A model generated the notes under the pieces. It made no database searches. It saw nothing but the letters and a program-made list of their open reading frames with translations, and was not told the origin of the DNA. Below, in pieces: positions 8,444-39,890 of a stretch of 64,000 nucleotides of DNA. The stretch lies in IMG/VR virus record IMGVR_UViG_3300032030_000042; one strand, 5' to 3'. Both the position numbers and the translations under genes were made by a program. The DNA is from an uncultured virus (IMG/VR IMGVR_UViG_3300032030_000042). Its lineage: Duplodnaviria; Heunggongvirae; Uroviricota; Caudoviricetes. Position 1 is the first letter of the stretch. Each line of letters begins with the position of its first letter.

Positions 8444-10153
8444 TTAAATGAAACTGAATTTAAACCCAGTAAATAGTTTATTAGCACCAAGCGTAGCAAG
8501 CCAAATAGAAGAACTAATATCATCATGTTCTCCTACACTTTCCAAACCATTATCAGTAAATGCTACCGAACCAAGGTCTGAAAATATAAGGTCTTTTACA
8601 TTACGGCTGTATTCATTTCCAATAGGAATATGTATTTTCCCTCTCTCCATAAGAATTGCTACCCCTGGCCAACCAGTTTTAAGGTCGAATTTTTCAATTC
8701 CTGTAGTATGACCAATGACTGGTAATCCCTGCTTATCGCTCTCTTCTACGAAAATCTGCTGAAAAACGTTTTGCTCTAATACCATAATTTCTGGTTGGAA
8801 ACGTAAATTAATTCCTCTCAGAACTTGCATTTGCTCAAAAAACGTTTTACCTTTATCCCTATACATGTGAAGCAAATACATTTCCCTATCTTCCGTAACA
8901 CCCCAAACTGTGAATACAGTGTAGTCGGCTCCTACATTACTACTTATTGAAAAGTCACAACCGACAACCACTTTTACAAACTTCATAGGAAAATCGTTTC
9001 GATTATTCACCAAAACATAATTTTCCATTCCTACTAAACAACGCTCCAATACCTTTAATGGGAATATAGATGATTCGTTGGTAATAGGACGGCAAAGATT
9101 TTCCCTACTGAAAATAATATTGCCTTGCGTAACACGCTTTTCCATAAGGTCGGCAAATGACCAACGCTGTGGCCAAAGTATTTGTCCGTTCGGGAAAATA
9201 GCTGGATATTCAATTACAAACCAACCCTTATGATTTTTGTTTGCTGTTATACTTTTACTTTTCAAGTCGCCATATAAATCCTGGGCATGGAAGGGAGTTC
9301 CTACAACGATAATTTGCCCACCAGGCACCAACATATTCATAATAACGGAATGAAAATAGTCGATACTCTTTTGGCGTTGTAATGCAGAATAAATTACGTT
9401 ATCTTTTAATCCGTCATCTACTATTATCCAGTATGGGTGAGCACCACGAACCGAAGAACCAAAACCCTTACATGTTAATCGTGCGCCATTTTTACAAACG
9501 ATATTCGTACTTGCCCAAGCACCGCCATTAACCTTACTATCGGGCATTAAACGTTCCCGCAAATCATCAACGCTTTCAATTGTACCTTTTAGGATTTCCA
9601 TAAGGTCAACTGACTGCTGGAGTGAGAACGAGAATAAGTAACCTCTATTGGAATTGCTTTTGCTTGGACGCATTGAAAATGCCTTGCGTTTCGGACGACT
9701 GTAGGTATAAAGTTTCCAAATAGCATATGCGTTGGAAAAGAAATACGACTTTCCGTGGTCACGGGCAGCGTTAATACATAATTTATTGTAATGCATTACC
9801 AAATCAGCCCATTCTATATGATGCCAACTCAACTGAAATTCCGGTAATACACTTGTAATAAAGTACAGCAAACTATTTTGGCGTAATACCTCCTCTATGC
9901 TTTGAGAAAGACGCTCGGTATATTTAGGGGCAAAATCAACATTCATATCGCCAGTGTAAAGCGTATTATAAACGTCCCGACTCATTTCCCTTATTACCCT
10001 ATCAATATCGCCATCTGAACCTTGATAAATTTCCAATAACGCTTTATCATCAAGCGAATCAAAAATTTCGTCCACAACTTGAAGACATTCCTGTTGATGA
10101 AGCGGTGATTGTAGTAAGGTTGTTTGATTGCTATTTAATAACGGAATTTCCAT
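8444..10153 (-). CDS. terL: terminase large subunit
   Basis: ARDHGKS Walker A, VRG..P..IIVDD Walker B, GTP coupling motif, RNase H-like VGCD..DYT..HDD. Confidence 0.92.
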   Translation of the reverse strand: MEIPLLNSNQTTLLQSPLHQQECLQVVDEIFDSLDDKALLEIYQGSDGDIDRVIREMSRDVYNTLYTGDMNVDFAPKYTERLSQSIEEVLRQNSLLYFITSVLPEFQLSWHHIEWADLVMHYNKLCINAARDHGKSYFFSNAYAIWKLYTYSRPKRKAFSMRPSKSNSNRGYLFSFSLQQSVDLMEILKGTIESVDDLRERLMPDSKVNGGAWASTNIVCKNGARLTCKGFGSSVRGAHPYWIIVDDGLKDNVIYSALQRQKSIDYFHSVIMNMLVPGGQIIVVGTPFHAQDLYGDLKSKSITANKNHKGWFVIEYPAIFPNGQILWPQRWSFADLMEKRVTQGNIIFSRENLCRPITNESSIFPLKVLERCLVGMENYVLVNNRNDFPMKFVKVVVGCDFSISSNVGADYTVFTVWGVTEDREMYLLHMYRDKGKTFFEQMQVLRGINLRFQPEIMVLEQNVFQQIFVEESDKQGLPVIGHTTGIEKFDLKTGWPGVAILMERGKIHIPIGNEYSRNVKDLIFSDLGSVAFTDNGLESVGEHDDISSSIWLATLGANKLFTGFKFSFI

Positions 10154-15157: not shown

Positions 15158-16033
15158 TTACTTATCAAAGATATTCAAACGACCTGAATCAATGGTAATC
15201 TTACGCATATAGCGGACGAACAGCGCACGTAATACCTTATCATCTGCATTGCCATGATAGTTGCCTTCACCATCTACCCACTGGTGCTTTTCTGGGTCAA
15301 CGCGATATCCCTTTTTCAGATTTTTATACGCCTTTTCCTGGGGTACAGAAAGTTTAGAACCGAGTTTGGTACGTGCGGCAGTGTCAAGAAACATTTCTAC
15401 AGTAATCTTTATTGGTTTTGGCTTTACCTCAACCGCCTTTTCTTTCTTTTCAGGCTTCAGTTCGGCAACCGCTTCAGGCTTGGCGGTCTTATGGTATTTA
15501 CCATTCATGCTCTTCCAGTCGAACATCCCTGGACGCCACTCTGTCCATACCCACTTGCCGTTCGGATGGATGTCGCCCACGTTATGCGTCGTATGAGTCG
15601 TCTTACGTTCCTTCGGCTCACCCTTAACCGCAGCAGGAGGAATATCGTCACCTGCGGCATGTTTAGTAGTTGCCTGACGCTTCTTATTTCCTACTGCGTC
15701 CTGACGTTCTACATTTTCTTCATTAACCTTTTTAATCTGCTGAACAACGAGGTCATTAATGCGGTCGTCAATTACCGCTAAAACCTCTGCGTGTAACTCA
15801 CCCTGAGGTTCTTTTTCTAACTCCCTTAATTCTTGAAGTTTTTCAACCTCCCACCAAATCTCAATAGCACGCTTGGCTACTGGTTTTGCCGCTTTGTAGG
15901 CGATACGCTTTTTGGCGGAAATGCTGGACATCTTCGTGTCAACGATTGCATTGAGTTTTACCAGACGCTCATCTTTGGCGTAGTTGGCTAATTCAGCCTG
16001 ATTTTCCTGAGTTTTTCGATTTTTTTGCTCCAT
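15158..16033 (-). CDS. basic hypothetical protein
   Basis: 291 aa with a Trp-rich module VGDIHPNGKWVWTEWRPGMFDWK; directly after repeat copy 2. Confidence 0.7.
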   Translation of the reverse strand: MEQKNRKTQENQAELANYAKDERLVKLNAIVDTKMSSISAKKRIAYKAAKPVAKRAIEIWWEVEKLQELRELEKEPQGELHAEVLAVIDDRINDLVVQQIKKVNEENVERQDAVGNKKRQATTKHAAGDDIPPAAVKGEPKERKTTHTTHNVGDIHPNGKWVWTEWRPGMFDWKSMNGKYHKTAKPEAVAELKPEKKEKAVEVKPKPIKITVEMFLDTAARTKLGSKLSVPQEKAYKNLKKGYRVDPEKHQWVDGEGNYHGNADDKVLRALFVRYMRKITIDSGRLNIFDK

Positions 16034-16039
16034 TTTGTT

Positions 16040-16175
16040 AATCTCCTATTTTTATTTTATATTTTATTCTACAGATAGATACAGCAGTTTTTACACTGTT
16101 TTTAACCATATCTTTCTGAAGTAAAAATACTAAATATTTTCCAAATAAAAAGAAAAATCTTCGTTTTTACCAAAT
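16040..16175 (-). repeat. conserved intergenic element copy 2
   Basis: TACTAAATATTTTCCAAATAAAAAGAAAAATCTTCGTTTTTACC plus AGATAC...TATCT. Confidence 0.85.
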
Positions 16176-16180
16176 TTTTT

Positions 16181-16435
16181 TTAATTATGGTACCAAGCAT
16201 CTGTACAATCAACTTTCGTTTTTGTAAACTTAATGTTCGATTTCTTTACCCAGAGTTCTTTACCTACCGCAATTTCCGTATTGCTACTGGTAATCCTGAT
16301 ATGGTACTGCGTAGGTGATTCATCAAATACCAAGCATCCTATTTTTACAGGAAGCGAAACTACTTGCCCAAACATGTACTTACGATAGTAGTAAGTTGCT
16401 TGCTGCGGTTGTTCGTATGTAACTTTTTTAGCCAT
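16181..16435 (-). CDS. hypothetical protein (SH3-like beta barrel?)
   Basis: 84 aa, ELWVKKSNI. Confidence 0.55.
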   Translation of the reverse strand: MAKKVTYEQPQQATYYYRKYMFGQVVSLPVKIGCLVFDESPTQYHIRITSSNTEIAVGKELWVKKSNIKFTKTKVDCTDAWYHN

Positions 16436-16473
16436 AAAAACTGATGTTTGTTTTGATAAAAAACTTTGGTAAT

Positions 16474-16522
16474 AAAAAAGTGACCGCCAGGAACGTTCTC
16501 TTTATATATTCCAGGCGGTCAC
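16474..16522 (-). terminator. strong intrinsic terminator
   Basis: GTGACCGCC/GGCGGTCAC stem followed by U6 on the minus strand. Confidence 0.8.
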
Positions 16523-16835
16523 AAGTCAGGATTATTTTATACTTGAAATGTTATATGATGCATAGTCTTAACTATCTCACTAAAATTAAGAGTGCAACTC
16601 AAATAATTATCTAGGTATCATTCCAATAAGCAAGCAAATGCTTAAACCGCTCGACTGCAGCGGCATCTTTTGTACTCCAATCACTGGTCGGCGGAATGAA
16701 ATTATACGTGACGGAGGAGTTAATAAAATAGAGAACATTGAAAGAAACAAATACGACTCCAGCGTCGTCGCTCGGTGCAGATGCCGGAAATAAAAGTGAG
16801 ATACGTCGTATTATGTTTCTTAGGATTTTCATACT
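16477..16835 (-). ncRNA. candidate large structured ncRNA
   Basis: lies between the CAAAGTTA motif (16841-16848) and a terminator; 16-bp stem plus three long-range pairings of 7-9 bp. Confidence 0.55.
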
Positions 16836-16849
16836 GTATATAACTTTGG

Positions 16850-18079
16850 CTACTTTTTTATCTCGCCAGTATAGTAATCTTTATTGCGGTTCTTATATCC
16901 TTTTACCTTACTTTTACTCGGTAAATCCTCGTCATGGAAACGACCTCGTGAATTACGATTTACCGCTTTCTCTCCATCTTCCACTTCATCACGATTAAGG
17001 TTTCCCCTCTGGTCCCAAAAGTTTTGTTTAGCAGCAAGGTTTTCTTTTTGCTGGCGTAACTTATCAAGGAATAATTTCTTAATATTTTGCGCTGACGAAT
17101 GCTGCTCTGAAGTCACATCCTCTGCTTGTACGTCCATAGTATTACTTTCTGCTTCACGTTCAATCTTTGTAAAATCGTACTGCATTGAGGATGGATAAAC
17201 CATTTCTTGGCTTTTATCTAAATCACCGGAAATCTCCATGAATTTAGCATAATAACTATTATGTAATCCGGCAATAAGTTTCTGTGGGTCATAATTCATA
17301 CGAGCCGCAATGCGTCCAAGAACTATTTCCTTCAGATTTATAGTCTTCAATATCTGGGCTTGTATATGTTCCTGAATCGTTACTTCTATATTAACATCCA
17401 ATGCACCATTTATATTGACTATATCGCCCTCGGCTTCCTTCCTTATCTGCTCCAGCGTGCGTAGCATAGCGTTATATGCGTCAATTTGATTGAAAGTGAT
17501 GTAGCGATTTTTCATCTTGGAATACATCCACGCTAATTCCTCCAGGCGTGGACGTTTATTGTAGAGCCGAACATCAGTAACTTTCTGGCGGAATTCATCA
17601 CGTTTCTTTTCAATTTCTACAATATGCTTTTTCAATACCTTTGTAACATCCTCCTCGTTTATGATAATTCCATTATCTTCGCCCATTATACGGACTACCT
17701 CAGGAATTGTAAACATACGCCCTAACAATTCTATGATATCCTCTTCGAATGGCGTTATTTTCCATAATTCCTTTGTATTTTTATCCCTACCGCCTAATCT
17801 ACCTGCCCTGCCGTATGCCTTTGCCTTAGCAGCATTTGCCTTGCAGCGCATCTGATTATGCTCGTGCTTGAGTTCAAAAATATGTTCCTGTTCCGTAGGT
17901 GATAAATGTTCAATATGCTTCCGTAATTTATCTGGAAACATAGTAATGTTAATTTCATCGCCCTGACTGGAGGTATAAATTACGTTGCGTAACGTAGGAT
18001 GGTTTTGTAAAGCATACCATTTCAAATACGCTTTTGGGTCAACAACGTCCTCTGGGATAGCAATTGTGCGTTTTTCCAT
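16850..18079 (-). CDS. hypothetical protein, DUF2280-like / possible terminase small subunit
   Basis: HTH-like FTIPEVVRIM then KRDEF...NKRPRLEEL..MY...LEQIRKEAEG. Confidence 0.45.
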   Translation of the reverse strand: MEKRTIAIPEDVVDPKAYLKWYALQNHPTLRNVIYTSSQGDEINITMFPDKLRKHIEHLSPTEQEHIFELKHEHNQMRCKANAAKAKAYGRAGRLGGRDKNTKELWKITPFEEDIIELLGRMFTIPEVVRIMGEDNGIIINEEDVTKVLKKHIVEIEKKRDEFRQKVTDVRLYNKRPRLEELAWMYSKMKNRYITFNQIDAYNAMLRTLEQIRKEAEGDIVNINGALDVNIEVTIQEHIQAQILKTINLKEIVLGRIAARMNYDPQKLIAGLHNSYYAKFMEISGDLDKSQEMVYPSSMQYDFTKIEREAESNTMDVQAEDVTSEQHSSAQNIKKLFLDKLRQQKENLAAKQNFWDQRGNLNRDEVEDGEKAVNRNSRGRFHDEDLPSKSKVKGYKNRNKDYYTGEIKK

Positions 18080-23160: not shown

Positions 23161-24651
23161 TTATTTTCTTGCTTTAAAATCCTGGATAAAACCAAGGTGA
23201 TGCTTTGCCCTTGTGAACGCTACATAAACGAGATTCTTTTCCTGCTCAGCCATCCAGGGCACTTTCATACAATGCTTCAAATAAAGTTTATCTTCACAAA
23301 TGATGAATACCCTATCGCTCTCTAGCCCCTTACTCTTATGAATAGTACTGAGGCAAATGCCGTTCTTGGAATCATTGTTAAAAATACCCTCAATACGATT
23401 AATAACGTCGTCGGCAAGGTCAAGTCCCTCAGAAAGTATTTCTATGGCGTTCAACTTATCGAGATACGACTGATATACGTCGTTATCTTTTGCCTCCTCA
23501 GCGGTGCAATGCTGATGCGCTACAATTTTATTAAGTATCTTTTCGGCTTCGTGATTAAGACGCTCTATGACTTGCGGCATACGCTTTTTATTGGTTTTCT
23601 TAATCATGTTAATAAGATTCATTCCAATGTCCTTGCCTTTAACATACGCCTTAACACCACTGGCGATATATTTCATACAAAGGTCAATCAGTGGCGCAGT
23701 AACACGGCAAAGTATCATGTCGCCATCCTTAACATCTTCCATTTTAGCGTTATGGTCAATGACGCCATCAGGAGCATTATCACGCCAGGTGATTTGCGGA
23801 ACTATGGTTTGCGCTAATTCTATTATAGTCTTATCGCAACGATAACAAACACTCAACGGAAGTTTAGCAGTATGCGGTATGGATTTCAAAAGATTAAAAC
23901 TTTCAACGTCCGCTCCACTAAATCCGTATATTGCTTGCCTTGGGTCACCAACCGCTATAAAGCGACCTCCTGGCTTAACACACTTCAAAAATAATTCCCT
24001 TTGGGCTGCATTAAGGTCTTGGCACTCGTCAATAAATACCCAATCATATTGCGGGCAGTTCATACGTTTTACGTTAGGAAAGTAAATCTGGTCGGTATAG
24101 TCGATAACGGCTGTGTTTTGCTCACCCCAGAATATTCCGTTTATAGCATGCTTGACTTCATTATCTATAATATCTAAGCAATGCTTTTCAGCAAGGTTCA
24201 TAAGACCATCAAACGTTCTTACAAGATTCACCCTACCTAACTGGATAAGGCGGTTGATATTATCCTTCCAAGTAGGATACTCCTCTGACTCAAGATTACG
24301 GCTTGGCTGAATCATACCTGATTGAATTTTATCATTTATCCATACTTTGTATTTAGTATCATCCAACTGTACGTTTTTATACGCAGTACGAACGATTTTA
24401 AAACCAAGACTATTTAGCGTTCTAATATCAACGTTTGGAATATTACCGATTTTAATCTTTAACTCCTCAACAATTGATGCGTTGAACGCAAGAAACAAAA
24501 CGCTTTTTGAAGCAGGGATTAACTTCAGGGCATTCACAATAGTCGTACTTTTACCGCTACCAGCAACGGCATCTATCACAGCGTTGCCTTTACCCTTTTG
24601 AATGTAAGTATAAACTGCCTTTTGATACTTACTTGGTACAAAATTTGCCAT
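23161..24651 (-). CDS. SF1 UvrD/Rep-like helicase, paralogue A
   Basis: AVAGSGKST, IDECQD, VGDPRQAIYGF, TIHKSKGLE, NLVYVAFTRAK. Confidence 0.92.
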   Translation of the reverse strand: MANFVPSKYQKAVYTYIQKGKGNAVIDAVAGSGKSTTIVNALKLIPASKSVLFLAFNASIVEELKIKIGNIPNVDIRTLNSLGFKIVRTAYKNVQLDDTKYKVWINDKIQSGMIQPSRNLESEEYPTWKDNINRLIQLGRVNLVRTFDGLMNLAEKHCLDIIDNEVKHAINGIFWGEQNTAVIDYTDQIYFPNVKRMNCPQYDWVFIDECQDLNAAQRELFLKCVKPGGRFIAVGDPRQAIYGFSGADVESFNLLKSIPHTAKLPLSVCYRCDKTIIELAQTIVPQITWRDNAPDGVIDHNAKMEDVKDGDMILCRVTAPLIDLCMKYIASGVKAYVKGKDIGMNLINMIKKTNKKRMPQVIERLNHEAEKILNKIVAHQHCTAEEAKDNDVYQSYLDKLNAIEILSEGLDLADDVINRIEGIFNNDSKNGICLSTIHKSKGLESDRVFIICEDKLYLKHCMKVPWMAEQEKNLVYVAFTRAKHHLGFIQDFKARK

Positions 24652-24659
24652 TTTTATTA

Positions 24660-24810
24660 ATCTCCATTTTTAATTTACAATTTTTATTTACAATTAGATA
24701 CGAAAGTTTTTTTATAAATTTTACCAACCTATCTACGACGCTAAATTACTAAATATTTTCCAAATAAAAAGAAAAATCTTCGTTTTTACCGAAAATTTTT
24801 TTTGCACCAT
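24660..24810 (-). repeat. conserved intergenic element copy 3
   Basis: same core; shares CTACGACGCTAAATTACTAAA and CGTTTTTACCGAAAATTTTTTT..ACCATAAAAAA with copy 4. Confidence 0.85.
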
Positions 24811-24846
24811 AAAAAAAAATAGGGCAAAACCTTTCAGCCTTGCCCC
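24811..24846 (-). terminator. intrinsic terminator between the helicase paralogues
   Basis: AGGGCAA/TTGCCCT-type stem with U9 on the minus strand. Confidence 0.65.
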
Positions 24847-24870: not shown

Positions 24871-26343
24871 TTAATAAACTTTGCGCATTAAATCATAAAG
24901 AAACATATCATTCATTACATATACCAACTCACGTTTCGCTCTTGTTACCGCCACATAATATAAATTACGTTCCTGCTCAAACTCCCAAGGCTGAGTAGCA
25001 AATTTGCTTGGTATTAATTCAGGGCATAAAAAGAATATACGCTCATTTTCTAATCCCTTTGCTTTATGTATAGTAGTAAGTATAATTCCTGTAACGTCGT
25101 CAGAAAATATACTATCAATTAAACGCTTTAACTCTTCTACATCTTTCACTTCACTTGCAAGCGTTTCTATAACGTAAAATTTTTGTCTAAACAAATCCAT
25201 TTTAGGATGCTTTTGCGGTTTTGATACTCCTTTATCCCTCAATTTATTTTCCAAGGCTTCACACTGACGTTCCAATCCAGCCATCATACCGGAAAGCGTA
25301 CTTGCTCCTGTTTTGTTAATCATAGCAATAATCCCTTCCGCTATATCCTTGCCCCTAATTTTTGCCTTGATGTGATTTTTCAATAACCAAAGATAGGTTT
25401 GTATTAAAGGTTTCAAATTTCTACAAACAACCCAGTCGCCATACTTTAATTCAGTCAACGAACCTTGCCGAACTATACCGCTGGGCGAATCAGGATTTGA
25501 TTCTATTTCCGGAACAATATCCTGCACCTCAGCAACAATATTACGAGCGCACCGATAGCAAACACTTAGCGGCATACGAATACTTTTGCCGTTTATCTCC
25601 GACAGACGTTGATAACTATTAGCATCTGCTCCTGCAAATCCATATATTGCTTGCCGTTCATCACCCACTGTAATAATACGTCCATTTCGAGCAATACACC
25701 GCTTTATAAATTCTTGTTGACAAAGTGAAAAATCTTGACTTTCATCGCAAAATACGCAAGCATATTTATCAAACCTAATTGTTGGGTCAACAACTGGGAC
25801 ATAAATCATATCCATGAAGTCAAACTGCTTCTTATCTTTACAAAGTAAATCGAATGCCTGCCGGACGTATTTTACATCTTCCCTATCAATATCTACATTA
25901 TAATAATTAGCGAGTTCTATGATGGTATTTTCATCGTTCTCACACATATTACAACGCATCAGGTCAAGCAGTTTAGGAATTACATAAAAGAAATACCCTT
26001 TCCGCTTCAAAGGTATCTTATTCTTAAGCATCACAACTTCCGCTTTCGCTATACCCTTATTAGGATTCATTTTCACCTTGCCGTAACGACGCAATATACT
26101 ATGCCAACCGCAACTATGGATAGTCATAATCTTAACATCCATCCGCTGCACCCTATTACGCAACTCATCGACAATAGCGTTATTGAAAGCAAGGAACAAC
26201 GTATTCTTATCCTTTGGAACATAATTCAACAATTCCAAAAGAGTTGTAGTCTTACCGCTACCAGCAACGGCAGAAATATTCATATTCTTATTCGTATGCT
26301 GGAAAACAGCGTAAATCCGTTTTTGATACTTTGATGGCGTCAT
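24871..26343 (-). CDS. SF1 UvrD/Rep-like helicase, paralogue B
   Basis: AVAGSGKTT, CDESQD, VGDERQAIYGF, TIHKAKGLE, NLYYVAVTRAK. Confidence 0.92.
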   Translation of the reverse strand: MTPSKYQKRIYAVFQHTNKNMNISAVAGSGKTTTLLELLNYVPKDKNTLFLAFNNAIVDELRNRVQRMDVKIMTIHSCGWHSILRRYGKVKMNPNKGIAKAEVVMLKNKIPLKRKGYFFYVIPKLLDLMRCNMCENDENTIIELANYYNVDIDREDVKYVRQAFDLLCKDKKQFDFMDMIYVPVVDPTIRFDKYACVFCDESQDFSLCQQEFIKRCIARNGRIITVGDERQAIYGFAGADANSYQRLSEINGKSIRMPLSVCYRCARNIVAEVQDIVPEIESNPDSPSGIVRQGSLTELKYGDWVVCRNLKPLIQTYLWLLKNHIKAKIRGKDIAEGIIAMINKTGASTLSGMMAGLERQCEALENKLRDKGVSKPQKHPKMDLFRQKFYVIETLASEVKDVEELKRLIDSIFSDDVTGIILTTIHKAKGLENERIFFLCPELIPSKFATQPWEFEQERNLYYVAVTRAKRELVYVMNDMFLYDLMRKVY

Positions 26344-34709: not shown

Positions 34710-35363
34710 TTATAAAGTTCTTACAAAACCTACTAATTCATCTAAGAAAGAATAATTTACTAAATTAGATAACGTTGCCGATTTTTGTAAATCTTGTTTC
34801 AATAAACCAATAGCGTCAATGAGTTTTTCAGTACAATACTCATCGCGTTCCTGGAAAGCGTGGTTTCCTAAACGAACTTCTTCTTTGATAAAAAATAAAA
34901 GTGCAAACCAGTCGCAAACCTTTACAAATTTATGCACTTCTTCACACATACTTCCGGTAACACACGCAAAAAACCTATATTCCTTTTGTGAGTTTTGTAT
35001 ATTATATCCCGTAATTTCTTCTTGTAACTGATGGTCAACATAACTATTTACTATATTACGCAACTTAACGCCATTGAAATCATTGTACTTTGTTTCGTGC
35101 GATAAATCACGTAAAAGAATTGCCTCATCAAAGTCATGCAACAAAGCGGTTTCAATGCAATCTAAACGAAAACGCAATGCCTCATAATCATTAGTATTAC
35201 TTTCTTTAAATAGATAATAAAGTAACAACTGAGCAAACACCGATACTTTGTAAGAATGTTGAGCAACACTTTCCTTCTGAAAAGTAAATCTGTCTTGCCA
35301 TTGATGAATATTATCCAGGCGGTGTAAATATTGCCCATTGTATATTGTACGAAATATTTTCAT
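34710..35363 (-). CDS. HD-domain deoxynucleotide phosphohydrolase (YfbR/DatZ-like)
   Basis: ESVAQHS, ALLHDFDE...D, VKVCD. Confidence 0.85.
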   Translation of the reverse strand: MKIFRTIYNGQYLHRLDNIHQWQDRFTFQKESVAQHSYKVSVFAQLLLYYLFKESNTNDYEALRFRLDCIETALLHDFDEAILLRDLSHETKYNDFNGVKLRNIVNSYVDHQLQEEITGYNIQNSQKEYRFFACVTGSMCEEVHKFVKVCDWFALLFFIKEEVRLGNHAFQERDEYCTEKLIDAIGLLKQDLQKSATLSNLVNYSFLDELVGFVRTL

Positions 35364-37447
35364 TTTTTACGTTCCTCCATTTTTGTAATTTTTTCCTTAT
35401 AATCTGATATTATGTATAACTTTGTAAAATCATCTGAAAACAGAGCGTTTTGATTTCTGAATTTATCCTTTTTGATAACACCACTCACCGCTACTGTATA
35501 TCCCTTTAATTTCTCTACATCATCAATACGTTCATAGGCGTCAGGCCAAAGCGTTACATTCAAAATCGTACTATTACACTCAACGTGTAAACTACACATT
35601 GTGCCATTCTTAATTTTACGTTCCTGGTAATATATCAACTTGCCTGCTATGGTCGCCTTACGTCCTTCTTTTGCTTTACCAAACTCAACATCATCAATAT
35701 ACATTTCAGCAAGTTTCTTATTTGGTATAGCATCACGTAACATATTTTCATAATCAATGTCTCCAAAACCAGTAAGCAATTTTTGCTCTATAATCCAAAA
35801 CGAATTACTGTTTGTAGCCATACCCTGATACTCTGCAGGAAAAACATCGCCCTTACTTTCCAAATAACGTTTCAATAATTGCTTGCGGTCACGTGGATAC
35901 TCAATTCCTTCAATAAGGTCAAACGCTCCAGCAATAATCAACGATTTTACTACAGTTTTATTTACCTTACTAGGAACACGGCTACAGAATTCCTCAAGAG
36001 AAAAGAATTTTCCACCATTTCTGCGTGTTTCAAGTATGTTTTTAACCGCTACCTCTCCACACCGCTTAATATTCCGTAAACTAAAGAATATACGACGCTC
36101 CTTCGGGTCGCAGGTAACATACTCATCTGAGAAGTTGATATCTGGAGGACGTATTTCTATTGGCAAACCTATTTTCTTCATTTCAGCCAGGCGATATGGC
36201 ACCTCGCTTTCCTTACTAAATTGTAATGCCGTTGTCCAAAATTCAAGAGGATAATTTACTTTGAACCACTGGCTCCAATAACTAATCAATGAATATGCAG
36301 CAGCATGTGATTTATTGAAACCATAACCACTGAATGAAAGCAACTTACTCCAAACCGAATCAGCGTACTTTTCAGGCTCTTTAATTCCGTTTTCGGTCAA
36401 TAGTTTTATATATCCTTGCTTAAACTTATCACCAAACGATGAAAGCGTTTTAATATCTTTCTTCTTAATAGTAGTACGCAAAACATCACTTTCTACAGGA
36501 GTTAAACCTCCAACGATAACCGCTTTCATGATTTGTTCCTGATACACATATAAACCCATCGTCGCTTCAGTAATATCTTCCATACCAAAATCGTACTTTG
36601 GTTTCTTTTTTCCTCGCTTCATATCAGCAAAATCCTGATGAGCACCTATATCCATAGGACCAGGACGAAATAAAGCAGTCATAGCAATAAGGTCATCAAG
36701 ACATTCTGGCTTAACTTGCTTGCAGTAATTCATCAATCCTGTAGTGCCAAATTGGAATACATCCTCGCACCAACCCTTACGGAAGAACTTAAATACGTTA
36801 TCGTCGTCCAGCGGTATCTTATTCACATCAATATTTATACCCTCGTCATCATGAATTAACTTTATAATGTTAGCAAATTTATCTAACTGCGAAAGTCCAA
36901 GTATATCTTCTTTAAGAAAACCGCCTTTATCAATATACTTTCCTTCCCACTGCGATACCACCATTCCATCAATCTGCTTTGTAGGCATCCACTCCCAAAT
37001 ATCTATATCTCCATTAGTACCATCAACCTTATGTCGTGGAACAATAACAACCGCCGACGGATGTATGCTTTCCGCTTTCGGCTGCATCATTCCATACTTG
37101 GTTAGCATTATGATTTCAGGATTTTCCTGGACGAACTTATAAAGCGTTTTTGATTCGCAAGCATACCTAAATAAATCACCCCAAGTGTATTCTATCTGGT
37201 CGTCAATTTCTTTTGTAACTTTATTAGTAGTATCGAAGGGAATACCCTTAATTTTACCAAAGTCTTTTATACAAGTCTTCGGCTTCATAGTAGTATAAGT
37301 AGCAATGTTACAAAAGTAATCATAACCATACTTTTGTTGAATATAGTTTTTTACAGCATCACGATGTATTGTCGGGAAATCGCAATCGATATCCGGCATT
37401 TGGTCGCCACGGGAAACTTCTATCTTTTTTATATTCTTTATTTTCAT
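35360..37447 (-). CDS. dnaE: DNA polymerase III alpha (family C), C-terminal part
   Basis: MPDIDCDF, SIHPSAVVI, KEDILGL, VFQF, ALFRPGP, VYQEQIM, YGFNKSHAAAY, OB fold; ATG at 37447 overlaps the endonuclease stop (ATGA). Confidence 0.92.
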   Translation of the reverse strand: MKIKNIKKIEVSRGDQMPDIDCDFPTIHRDAVKNYIQQKYGYDYFCNIATYTTMKPKTCIKDFGKIKGIPFDTTNKVTKEIDDQIEYTWGDLFRYACESKTLYKFVQENPEIIMLTKYGMMQPKAESIHPSAVVIVPRHKVDGTNGDIDIWEWMPTKQIDGMVVSQWEGKYIDKGGFLKEDILGLSQLDKFANIIKLIHDDEGINIDVNKIPLDDDNVFKFFRKGWCEDVFQFGTTGLMNYCKQVKPECLDDLIAMTALFRPGPMDIGAHQDFADMKRGKKKPKYDFGMEDITEATMGLYVYQEQIMKAVIVGGLTPVESDVLRTTIKKKDIKTLSSFGDKFKQGYIKLLTENGIKEPEKYADSVWSKLLSFSGYGFNKSHAAAYSLISYWSQWFKVNYPLEFWTTALQFSKESEVPYRLAEMKKIGLPIEIRPPDINFSDEYVTCDPKERRIFFSLRNIKRCGEVAVKNILETRRNGGKFFSLEEFCSRVPSKVNKTVVKSLIIAGAFDLIEGIEYPRDRKQLLKRYLESKGDVFPAEYQGMATNSNSFWIIEQKLLTGFGDIDYENMLRDAIPNKKLAEMYIDDVEFGKAKEGRKATIAGKLIYYQERKIKNGTMCSLHVECNSTILNVTLWPDAYERIDDVEKLKGYTVAVSGVIKKDKFRNQNALFSDDFTKLYIISDYKEKITKMEERKK

Positions 37448-38220
37448 CTTTTCCTTCTTTTCATTCCATACCAAAATCCTTCTGGCAAAGGACTATCTTT
37501 TAATATAACAGTGTTTATAATTCCGTTAGTTATTCTAACCTTGCCTGTCATTGGATTAACATAATCTCCATTTTTAACATTTTCGAGCATTCGTTTAGAC
37601 ATTCTTTCCTTTTGCTCAGTAGTCCACTTTTTACCATAATTAGGATTTTTCTCGCCATTATACCTACCAGTCATTTTATTAGACAAATTCTTCCTTTGTT
37701 CATCTGTCCAATAATTTCCATAATTAGGATTTTTCTTTCCACTATACCTACCTTTCAACGTCTTTGAAATTCTTTCTTTATAATCTGTATTTTCAAGCAA
37801 CCATTTACGTTTTTCTCTCATTCTTTCCATAATTTCAGGATGCTCACGATACGTCTTTTTCAATGTTTGAACTTGCCTTCTTACAATATCCTTATCAAGC
37901 ATAGGACTACCAGCACCAAATTTATTCGCAGTACCCTTTAATATATTACAACCACCAGCATTTTCTTTATAATACGCTTTTTCCTTACGAATATAAACCT
38001 CTTCTAATTTATCAATTGTAAATTGAGTGCAGTTACCTTGATATAAAATTTCTCTCTTTATTAACTTTTTCCAACATTTAGGATACTTATTTTTTAAAGA
38101 ATTCAAATGATTATTCCAAATAGTACCGCTACCCCAATATCTATCGAAATGATTGCCACTGAATTGACCTACATAAAAAATTCCTGAAGTAAGGATTGTA
38201 AATTTGTATATAATTCTCAT
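37444..38220 (-). CDS. GIY-YIG homing endonuclease with NUMOD3-like repeats
   Basis: IIYKFT....FYVGQ...YWGSG..W; repeated G.KNPNYG..WT.EQ...S. Confidence 0.85.
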
Positions 38221-39890
38221 TGCATTAATTTTAATTTATCTACATCAACGTCTATAACTGACATATCTAAATCGCAATCAATGTCTATTTCATCACCATT
38301 TATCAACGGCAATTTTTTACCTACCTTTATTTTATATTTTTCTCCGTTTTGTAGTTCAATTTCCCAAAATTTTTCTGGCATAACACGAGTTTCATTCAAA
38401 AAACGCTCAAACAGCAAACCATATTTTATTGGGTCAACATCTGTTATGTAAAGCAAATATGCTACTAAACTACCGCAAACCGAACCACGCCCAGGACCAG
38501 TATTAATATTATTTTCTCTACACCAACGCATAATGTCCCAAAGGATTAAAAAGTAATCACTCAAACCTGCTGGAACAATAACGGAACATTCGGTGCTTAA
38601 ACGCTCCATATATAGATTCATCTTCTTTTTTGAAAAACCCTTCAAGCGTTCTTTAATGCCTATCTCAATTTGCTCAAAGAATAATGCATCTGAATCTGCG
38701 GTATCAAATTTTGGTAACTTACGATTTCCGGCAGGTATCTTGAAATCTACCTTGCTACCAAAATTGTAAGCATTTTCTATGCCCTTTAATATAGTAGCAT
38801 ACAGCGGTTCAACATCCATGAATTCTTCATACGCTTTCATAGTATCATCGAACGACTTGTAATACTGATTCAAACCCTCTGACTCAGCCTTACCTGAAAT
38901 CTTATTCAAAGCAGATTTCAACTCCACCTCTTCAGCATCAAGATAATACGAATCATTTATCAGAATTGGCTTTACTAACTTTTTGTAATCGCAAATATAT
39001 GTATCTAGTTGATGAAGATGTTCTTTAAATACTTTTTGTGAAGCGTACTCAACTGTATCGATTTGGTAATATACCTCATCAAATACATGTTTATACTTCG
39101 CTAACAACTTCACCGCCTCATTACGCTCATCTATAATGTAGTTGAAATAACTTTCTCGTGGTATTACACAGCATAAACCCTCACCGATGGTATAAAGTTC
39201 TTCAGCAGGTATTAAACCATCATACGTGACGTTTATTGCCTTGCTAACTAACAGAAGATTTTTCCACCCCTGATAATTCATCACATACAACTTCAATTCA
39301 AACGTTTCAGGGATTTCTACCTCTGGCGTATAATTTACAGCGACTGTGGCGGTCATTCCTATAATAGGTTTGATGCCTGCCTTTTCACAAGCGGTTTGAA
39401 AACAAAGCGAACCAGCAAGATTATTCTTATCACATATACCAAGTATCGTATGACGCAAAAACTTTGCTTTCTTTACCCAAAGTTCGCAATCACCACTACC
39501 ATTAAGAATTTCATATTCTGAGTGGACGCCTAAATGAGCGAACGGCATAACATCTTCTTCGGTACTGGTACCGATGTACTTGAAGTCATTAAATTCAGGC
39601 TTGAATATAACTTCATTATACTTACTTTTATCTTGCTTAATCGATGAATAATAAAACCGCTTACCAAACTCAAACAAAATATAATCCACTTTCTTTTCAT
39701 CAAGTAAATCAAATTCATCGTCGTTCACAATAAACGAAAAATCACCATCAATGATTTTACCATCAGTTGGTTTAAGATATAGCATCTTACCTAAACCATC
39801 AACATGAATGATATCGGAGCCGTTTATACTTTCCAGCTCCGATACACTCATTTTATTTTCAAATAGCCAACGCTGTAAACTTTCAGTCAT
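38217..39890 (-). CDS. dnaE: DNA polymerase III alpha, N-terminal part (PHP + start of palm)
   Basis: [63 protein letters not shown]. Confidence 0.92.

Follow-up and report, generated by a model that had tools for sequence, protein, structure and literature searches.

An orphan 73-codon gene with a candidate loop contact between its 3' untranslated region and coding region in an uncultured ruminant-gut phage

Introduction

Does a compact, strongly self-complementary transcription unit in a phage genome produce a structured RNA that acts by itself, or the message of a small protein? The question is raised by some 350 nt in a 64,000-nucleotide stretch of DNA, here called the window (IMG/VR record IMGVR_UViG_3300032030_000042), which belongs to a contig of ~101 kb from an uncultured phage of the ruminant gut. 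The initial annotation took the unit for a stand-alone noncoding RNA (ncRNA) with an ornate fold, set its only open reading frame (ORF) aside as unconvincing and placed it behind a possible packaging gene. Based on the comparisons described here, we conclude that the RNA is most likely the mRNA of a small accessory phage protein.

The phage carries a T4-like replication and recombination set and three tRNAs. The 409-aa upstream neighbour of the unit, which had been read as the packaging gene, gave sub-threshold matches only (DUF2280, E 0.051; phrog_546, E 0.0047), and the large terminase gene lies elsewhere, at 8444-10153. The host is probably a member of the Bacteroidales, because, among cultured phages, only six Bacteroides phages (32% identity) have a relative of the 409-aa neighbour and because one related contig fell into the genome bin of an uncultured Bacteroidales. 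Bacteroidales hosts depend on unfolded start regions and should be especially sensitive to mRNA folding. No Shine-Dalgarno-like sequence was found before the 73-aa gene or the following 84-aa gene, and three repeated leaders elsewhere in the window have GGAG before the ATG.

Several other features of the phage were recorded along the way. An upstream region of ~160 nt is present in three copies on the minus strand (16020-16200, 24640-24820 and 2745-2925) with 84% mean column identity and an exact 23-mer core, each copy ending in ...GGAGATTAACAAAATG at a gene start. The genes behind these copies are a 291-aa gene, a Dda-like helicase gene and a small ORF at ~2760, and short metagenome contigs pile up over the repeat region at ~7-fold depth; the repeat is likely a strong repeated promoter and leader. 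Two paralogous Dda-like/phrog_1967 helicase genes stand in tandem on the minus strand (23161-24651 and 24871-26343), the second of them preceded by the repeated ~160-nt leader. The family-B DNA polymerase is split in two ORFs (35360-39890, minus strand), one of 557 aa that corresponds to the N-terminal third of phrog_405 and one of 704 aa that corresponds to the remainder, with a 258-aa ORF (37444-38220), possibly an inserted mobile gene, between them.

Results

Layout and boundaries of the unit

The transcription unit lies on the minus strand, as does every sizeable gene or ORF of the 64-kb window. Its features, together with the copies of the motif that precedes it, are as follows.

16841-16848, minus strand: CAAAGTTA, a gene-start (promoter-like) motif, 8 nt 5' of the ATG
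16611-16832, minus strand: ORF of 73 aa (P0001), stop included; ATG at 16832, stop at 16611-16613
16742-16821, minus strand: long stem of 8+8 bp with one bulge; arms 16805-21 and 16742-57
16795-16803, minus strand: 5' arm of a long-range pairing; ORF nt 30-38, codons 10-13
16647-16663, minus strand: small hairpin CCGC(N9)GCGG, within codons 57-62
16523-16610, minus strand: 3' untranslated region (3'UTR) of 88 nt, between the stop and the terminator stem
16565-16592, minus strand: 3'UTR hairpin CTCTTAAT...TTAAGAC, whose loop (16572-16585) contains the 3' arm of the long-range pairing (16573-81)
16474-16522, minus strand: intrinsic terminator with a 9+5-bp GC-rich stem, a 13-nt loop and a T6 run
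16462-16469, minus strand: second motif copy, CCAAAGTT, at the start of the next unit (84-aa gene, 16181-16435)
11431-38, 12337-44, 12773-80, 16841-48, 22032-39 and 22274-81, minus strand: copies of CAAAGTTA
28167-74, 35417-24, 41163-70 and 48810-17, minus strand: further copies of CAAAGTTA
16462-68 and 42578-84, minus strand: examples of CAAAGTT variants of CAAAGTTA

The unit had been described as bounded by a gene-start motif and a strong terminator, and this description holds, with CAAAGTTA at 16841-48 on one side and the terminator at 16474-16522 on the other. Judged by its placement, CAAAGTTA is probably a phage promoter element. The window has 10 copies against 4.8 expected on both strands, every one of them on the gene strand, and most precede a gene start or tRNA-Leu by 10-55 nt, often right behind the T run of a terminator. 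The motif is the reverse complement of TAnnTTTG, which we take to be the consensus of the Bacteroides -7 box.

In the strain sequence X6 (introduced below), a 1-nt deletion in a homopolymer falls just before the stop of the 409-aa gene (16850-16862), so the lysine-rich C-terminal tail of the 409-aa protein varies between strains.

A small-protein family in few relatives

Relatives of the unit were sought by a six-frame and profile screen of 60 loci on uncultured phage contigs that carry homologues of the 409-aa gene. Among these 60 loci the ORF was found only in the window's own contig (L011), in L009 (the same as L055) and in L025; by source, 32 viral loci yielded it once, 16 metagenome loci twice (the window's contig included) and the single genome locus not at all. 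The homologues in L009 and L025 are 79 aa long and syntenic, standing directly after the homologue of the 409-aa gene, while the other relatives have unrelated small ORFs in this slot. The genome locus, the one relative returned by a scan of genome contigs, lacks the unit. Two further 79-aa homologues, P0002 and P0031, known as proteins only and 73-74% identical to the L009 product, were found by a profile search of 1.84 billion representative proteins; two long repetitive proteins from the same search were taken as spurious. A related-locus search with the peptide alignment found nothing. The single locus from a search with P0002, L027, was a chance match on the strand opposite a 333-aa gene and was discarded.

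The organization of the unit recurs in L009 and L025. Both show the same order of terminator followed by ACAAAGTTA, with a different terminator in the same place, and their 3'UTRs are similar in size (~110 nt); upstream of its ORF L009 has a degenerate version only of CAAAGTTA. At the DNA level no real blastn match was found between the window unit and its 10 first relatives, nor any similarity to cultured phages. At the protein level the window product is ~34% identical to the 79-aa homologues (BLASTP E 8e-7) and has in common with all of them the stop position and the C-terminal motif K.A.V.R[WF]K..L[AS]YW[DN]D. By these searches the family is an orphan, found in two or three phage lineages only.

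The composition of the ORF sets it apart in both lineages, with a GC content of 0.42 against 0.36 in the window and of 0.51 against 0.37-0.39 for the homologous ORF in L009 and L025.

Evidence for and against a coding role of the ORF

Contrary to its earlier dismissal, the 73-aa ORF behaves as a real gene: it has homologues, it accumulates frame-keeping indels and its dN/dS is below 1. The peptide is conserved among the homologues, an outcome that the initial annotation itself had named as speaking against an ncRNA. An open ORF ending at the same stop is found in each of the 7 sequences available, namely the window, L009, L025, P0002, P0031 and the sequences X2 and X6, which together with X16 are close strains or sequences from public runs. 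X6 carries five indel events within the ORF: it has lost 9 nt and 3 nt at two places, gained 12 nt by tandem duplication, and shows a -1 and a +1 change 4 nt from each other. Its frame is still open over 73 codons. The X6 indels in the 3'UTR and terminator region, at 16474, 16510, 16524 and 16527, are all of single bases.

Substitution patterns point the same way. Among X2, X6 and X16 the ORF shows three synonymous (16614, 16779, 16803) and two non-synonymous (16813, 16818) substitutions, and dN/dS for the ORF is ~0.5, only moderately below 1. Nei-Gojobori estimates for the window against L009 are pN 0.47 and pS 0.65, and for the C-terminal 19 codons pN 0.29 and pS 0.60; in this conserved C-terminus identical residues are often encoded by different codons. 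L009 and L025 differ by 7 non-synonymous and 4 synonymous changes. Additionally, the in-frame codon score is the highest among the six frames.

The 12-nt tract duplicated in X6, GAAAGAAACAAA (16740-16751), belongs to the 3' arm of the long stem. With the tandem duplication the protein gains four codons (a repeat of FVSF) and the 5' arm a possible second pairing partner.

On the other side stands the codon usage. The score of the ORF, -0.097 per codon, is below those of every one of 209 in-frame chunks from the long genes of the phage and of all 9 small neighbouring genes, and spurious plus-strand ORFs equal or exceed it in 4 of 40 cases. Furthermore, the exact 73-aa protein is absent from a 15-billion-protein collection in which both neighbours from the same contig are present, so the gene was not called there. 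A word-index protein search with the product gave no candidate, PHROGs, Pfam, NCBIfam, PADLOC, PDB sequences and the ESM Atlas returned nothing usable for it, and P0002 had no tblastn match among cultured phages. The AlphaFold2 model from the 5-sequence alignment reached a mean pLDDT of 48.8, too poor for use. Two matches to P0002, ICE2 (E 0.0016) and Csn2 (E 0.0078), were sub-threshold and were disregarded. The atypical codon usage, the missing gene call and the lack of a family or fold match fit a recently acquired gene of foreign composition, and gene callers miss the family because of this odd composition.

The homologues in L009 and L025 and P0002 have a basic N-terminus followed by a hydrophobic stretch, with a 19-aa Kyte-Doolittle maximum of 1.66-1.91 and a net charge of +5 to +7. 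The window protein is less hydrophobic and less basic (maximum 1.46, net charge +1). These profiles would be compatible with a possible membrane-associated role. It is a guess that an accessory protein with these properties, small, basic and partly hydrophobic, might serve host take-over or exclusion.

Self-complementarity of the unit

All complementary segments named by the initial annotation are present in the sequence. Three of the pairs are exact, TATCTCACT (16573-81) with AGTGAGATA (16795-803) over 9 nt, CGGCATCT (16661-68) with AGATGCCG (16779-86), and TCATTCC (16618-24) with GGAATGA (16693-99). The pair 16742-57 and 16805-21 forms 8+8 bp around the bulged base 16813; this long stem closes an 80-nt hairpin that begins 12 nt past the A of the ATG. 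The pair 16674-84 and 16708-20 is imperfect, with 5 and 4 bp flanking an internal loop.

Inverted repeats of at least 8 nt (exact) number 5 in 16521-16840 against 0.84 in dinucleotide shuffles, and none of 500 shuffles reached 5; for repeats of at least 7 nt the count is 7 against 3.15 (17 of 500 shuffles). The genome background is less forgiving. Across the 64 kb, 320-nt segments hold on average 1.19 repeats of at least 8 nt, and 13 of 796 have at least 5. The minimum free energy (MFE) z-score of -4.17 obtained with the terminator is largely the terminator's contribution. Without the terminator the z-score is -2.10 (ORF part -2.21, UTR +0.74), to be set against a genome background of -0.83 +/- 1.24 over 56 segments, at least 8 of which are more negative than -2.10. 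The pairings of the unit are real and somewhat enriched, but they are not exceptional for the genome of this phage.

Among 59 genes of the window, this one has the most structured start region (-10..+25), with an unpaired probability of 0.315 against 0.53 +/- 0.11. The same region is not unusually structured in L009 and L025 (0.53 and 0.60). Occlusion of the start is absent from these two loci and is therefore not claimed as conserved.

Conservation of the helices

The window helices were mapped onto L009 and L025 through the protein alignment, a comparison that covers two lineages with DNA plus two strains. Of the 9 helices tested, 7 keep under half of their pairs at the homologous columns of L009 and L025, and two 5-bp helices were scorable at 2 columns only. 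The two halves of the 16-bp stem keep 3/8 and 3/8 pairs, CGGCATCT/AGATGCCG keeps 1-2 of 6, TCATTCC/GGAATGA keeps 2-3 of 7, and another four predicted helices each retain 2 pairs or fewer. Among close strains, the 16-bp stem is kept in X6 with a changed bulge base, and one of its pairs is broken in X2 (16818 T>A). Position 16779 is G in all 3 runs that cover it, which removes the terminal pair of CGGCATCT/AGATGCCG. By contrast with these helices, the small hairpin at 16647-16663 keeps all 6 pairs in L009, where one has changed on both sides from U-A to C-G, and 5 of the 6 in L025. The RNAalifold covariation term over three poorly aligned units was +1.71, unfavourable and without net support.

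Together these results leave little of the ornate conserved fold that had been proposed for a stand-alone ncRNA: the unit contains a conserved ORF, its helices are not kept overall and there is no net covariation. What the comparison does support is one small hairpin and one of the three long-range pairings, while the 16-bp stem, the global fold and the other two long-range pairings are not conserved in the homologues. The surviving elements are the hairpin at 16647-16663, the 3'UTR hairpin and the pairing of the latter's loop with codons 10-13; by this comparison, most of the unit's self-complementarity is specific to this lineage.

The view that the unit belongs to no known RNA family was borne out. 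A cmscan of the whole window at gathering score returned the 3 tRNAs only, the region itself gave two snoRNA chance matches and nothing else against Rfam 15 at E up to 10, and the L009 homologue had nothing near gathering score.

A candidate loop contact between the 3'UTR and codons 10-13

The stem of the 3'UTR hairpin, CTCTTAAT...TTAAGAC, is the same in the window, L009 and L025, and lies ~21 nt past the stop. The motif occurs only in ORF-carrying loci (60 loci, 299 kb searched) and once in the window, where 0.02 occurrences are expected. The loops differ completely, with lengths of about 13, 43 and 45 nt in the window, L009 and L025. In the window the loop pairing is TATCTCACT/AGTGAGATA, 9 bp with its target at ORF nt 30-38. 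L009 has a loop pairing at the same ORF position with a different sequence, CCTTGTCG/CGACAAGG, of 8 bp (10 with G-U). In L025 the pairing is 5+2 bp, weakened by an internal mismatch, and the loop pairs better elsewhere in the ORF.

When the loops were matched against every 12-mer of leader plus ORF, that site gave the best duplex in the window (rank 1/228) and in L009 (1/246), and ranked 5/246 in L025. Shuffled loops reached the observed energy at the site in 6 of 3000 trials for the window, a figure that is no independent test because the window is the discovery case, in 107 of 3000 for L009 (P 0.036) and in 455 of 3000 for L025. A second line of evidence comes from X6, where 16573 T>C is accompanied by 16803 A>G and the terminal U-A pair becomes C-G; the window, X2 and X16 carry the U-A combination at 16573/16803. 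In a simulation, the probability of at least one compensated pair among all inverted repeats of at least 7 nt was P = 0.024. We conclude that the hairpin loop probably pairs with codons 10-13, as far as sequence comparison can indicate. A pairing that covers the ribosome binding site or start codon was not seen: the target is ORF nt 30-38, and a site 30-38 nt into the ORF lies outside the initiation footprint of the ribosome.

Transcript evidence

One RNA-library contig of 276 nt, X16 (16532-16807), covers only this unit out of 1.2 kb compared, and another RNA run, X13, covers the neighbouring genes and not the unit. These contigs are no more than a hint of a separate transcript, as they show neither strand, ends nor level and may stem from DNA carry-over. 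A scan of the 5' region for an antisense promoter or terminator found none that was convincing, with a consensus that does not extend to Bacteroidales promoters.

Discussion

In the present study, a unit first described as an RNA of its own is best read as a small gene. We favor a moron-type accessory unit: an orphan 73-aa gene whose mRNA has a partly conserved structure that includes the loop contact, a reading to which we give a probability of roughly 45%. The gene-start motif would act as promoter for a message consisting of the 73-aa gene and the 88-nt 3'UTR and ending at the intrinsic terminator. The first 100 nt of the window's ORF are predicted to fold as a long hairpin, and codons 10-13 would sit in an internal loop of this 5' hairpin, giving a loop-loop geometry. 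The loop of the 3'UTR hairpin could then make a 'kissing' contact with these codons in vivo. By analogy with icaR mRNA, such a 5'-3' contact may close the message and tune its translation or decay.

How much of this structure matters is the point on which the explanations divide. It is quite possible, if tentative, that the unit is a plain small accessory gene in which all pairings beyond the terminator are incidental products of composition, of a duplication-prone 12-nt tract and of chance, and in which the 3'UTR hairpin is merely a conserved flank of the cassette. The z-score without the terminator (-2.1) lies inside the genome spread, 13/796 segments are equally repeat-rich, conservation is lacking for the main stem and for two of the long-range pairs, and the RNAalifold term is +1.71; moreover, L025 breaks the loop pairing, and each comparative support has a P of only ~0.02-0.04. 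Against pure coincidence stand two independent observations on the same helix, the same position with a different sequence in L009 and the two-sided change in X6, and the conservation of the hairpin stem where the remaining UTR is not alignable. A further reading is a dual-purpose RNA that would encode a small basic, membrane-leaning peptide and whose message would be closed by the kissing contact, a hok-like or new post-transcriptional switch. We consider this unlikely; if true, it would place a dual-purpose switch in phages of Bacteroidales, hosts without Shine-Dalgarno-led initiation. A type-I-toxin-like (hok-like) module with a membrane-active peptide and an mRNA kept inert by 5' structure and 3' fold-back until activated by processing, or else controlled by antisense RNA is less probable still. 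The basic N-terminus and hydrophobic stretch of the homologues, the 5'-3' complementarity and the occluded start in the window all suit such a module. However, the protein of the window has a lower hydrophobicity (1.46, net charge +1), the start occlusion is not shared by L009 and L025, the pairing leaves the start codon uncovered, and a scan of the 5' region with a consensus that does not cover Bacteroidales promoters turned up no convincing antisense promoter or terminator. Type I toxins are also typically shorter than 73-79 aa.

That the RNA is a stand-alone structured ncRNA, with the ORF incidental or a by-product of RNA constraints, we regard as improbable, at about the level of the toxin-like module or marginally above it. 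Its best arguments are the atypical codon usage, the missing gene call and the raised GC in both lineages, along with the excess of inverted repeats over shuffles, a start region that is the most structured of 59 genes, the unit's own terminator and the one RNA-library contig confined to the unit. These are outweighed by an ORF that is open with the same stop in 7/7 sequences, by frame-keeping indels found only inside the ORF, by peptide similarity that is detectable where DNA similarity is not, and by the failure to find an Rfam match even at E 10 or a conserved global fold. Finally, the 9-bp inverted repeats might act as DNA, for example as the ends of an invertible segment, in which case the two-sided change would be repeat homogenisation; copies 213 bp apart did change together in X6. 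This we hold to be very improbable, since the arms are only 8-9 bp long, no recombinase was recognised among the scanned neighbours, no joints were seen in the 4 runs compared (contigs can miss rare forms), and one arm lies exactly within a hairpin loop, as fits an RNA contact.

The claim of a new ncRNA is not sustained, and work on a false lead is thereby spared. What remains is modest but real, an orphan small-protein family plus a candidate 3'UTR-to-coding-region loop contact with some covariation. To our knowledge, bacterial mRNAs with a documented 5'-3' contact are few, and those of phages fewer still. If confirmed, the contact would be a useful example of accessory-gene tuning in gut Bacteroidales phages.

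The accessory-unit reading draws on phage morons. According to PMC4378225, a moron is a single gene with its own promoter and terminator, inserted between genes of related phages, and the unit matches this definition by its own terminator, gene-start motif, composition and spotty distribution. Like the morons of that text, it has a single small coding region with a terminator directly behind and a gene-start motif before it, deviates from its neighbours in composition and codon usage, and is present in few relatives while others have different small ORFs in the slot. Unlike them, its promoter is a motif only (predicted), and unlike the typical context of a moron, the window shows no sign of a temperate phage.

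Two comparisons with structured RNAs are less close. GOLLD and ROOL are large ornate phage-associated ncRNAs. The unit resembles them in phage context, raised GC and many predicted helices, and differs in having a conserved ORF, helices that are not conserved overall and no Rfam match at gathering score or at E 10. The mRNAs of hok/sok-type type I toxins have a 3' fold-back element. Similar to these, the unit combines a small basic and hydrophobic peptide (in the homologues) with a highly folded mRNA and a putative 5'-3' contact; in contrast to them, no sign of an antisense RNA was found, the peptide exceeds theirs in length and is weakly hydrophobic in the window, and the start codon is left uncovered by the 3' element.

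The pairing of the icaR 3'UTR reportedly covers the Shine-Dalgarno region. According to PMC3868564, icaR mRNA of Staphylococcus aureus controls its translation by 3'UTR-5'UTR pairing. The predicted target in the phage message differs from that 5'UTR target, as it consists of codons 10-13 in a loop. As in the same account of icaR (PMC3868564), a 3'UTR of ~100 nt is complementary to the 5' part of its own mRNA.
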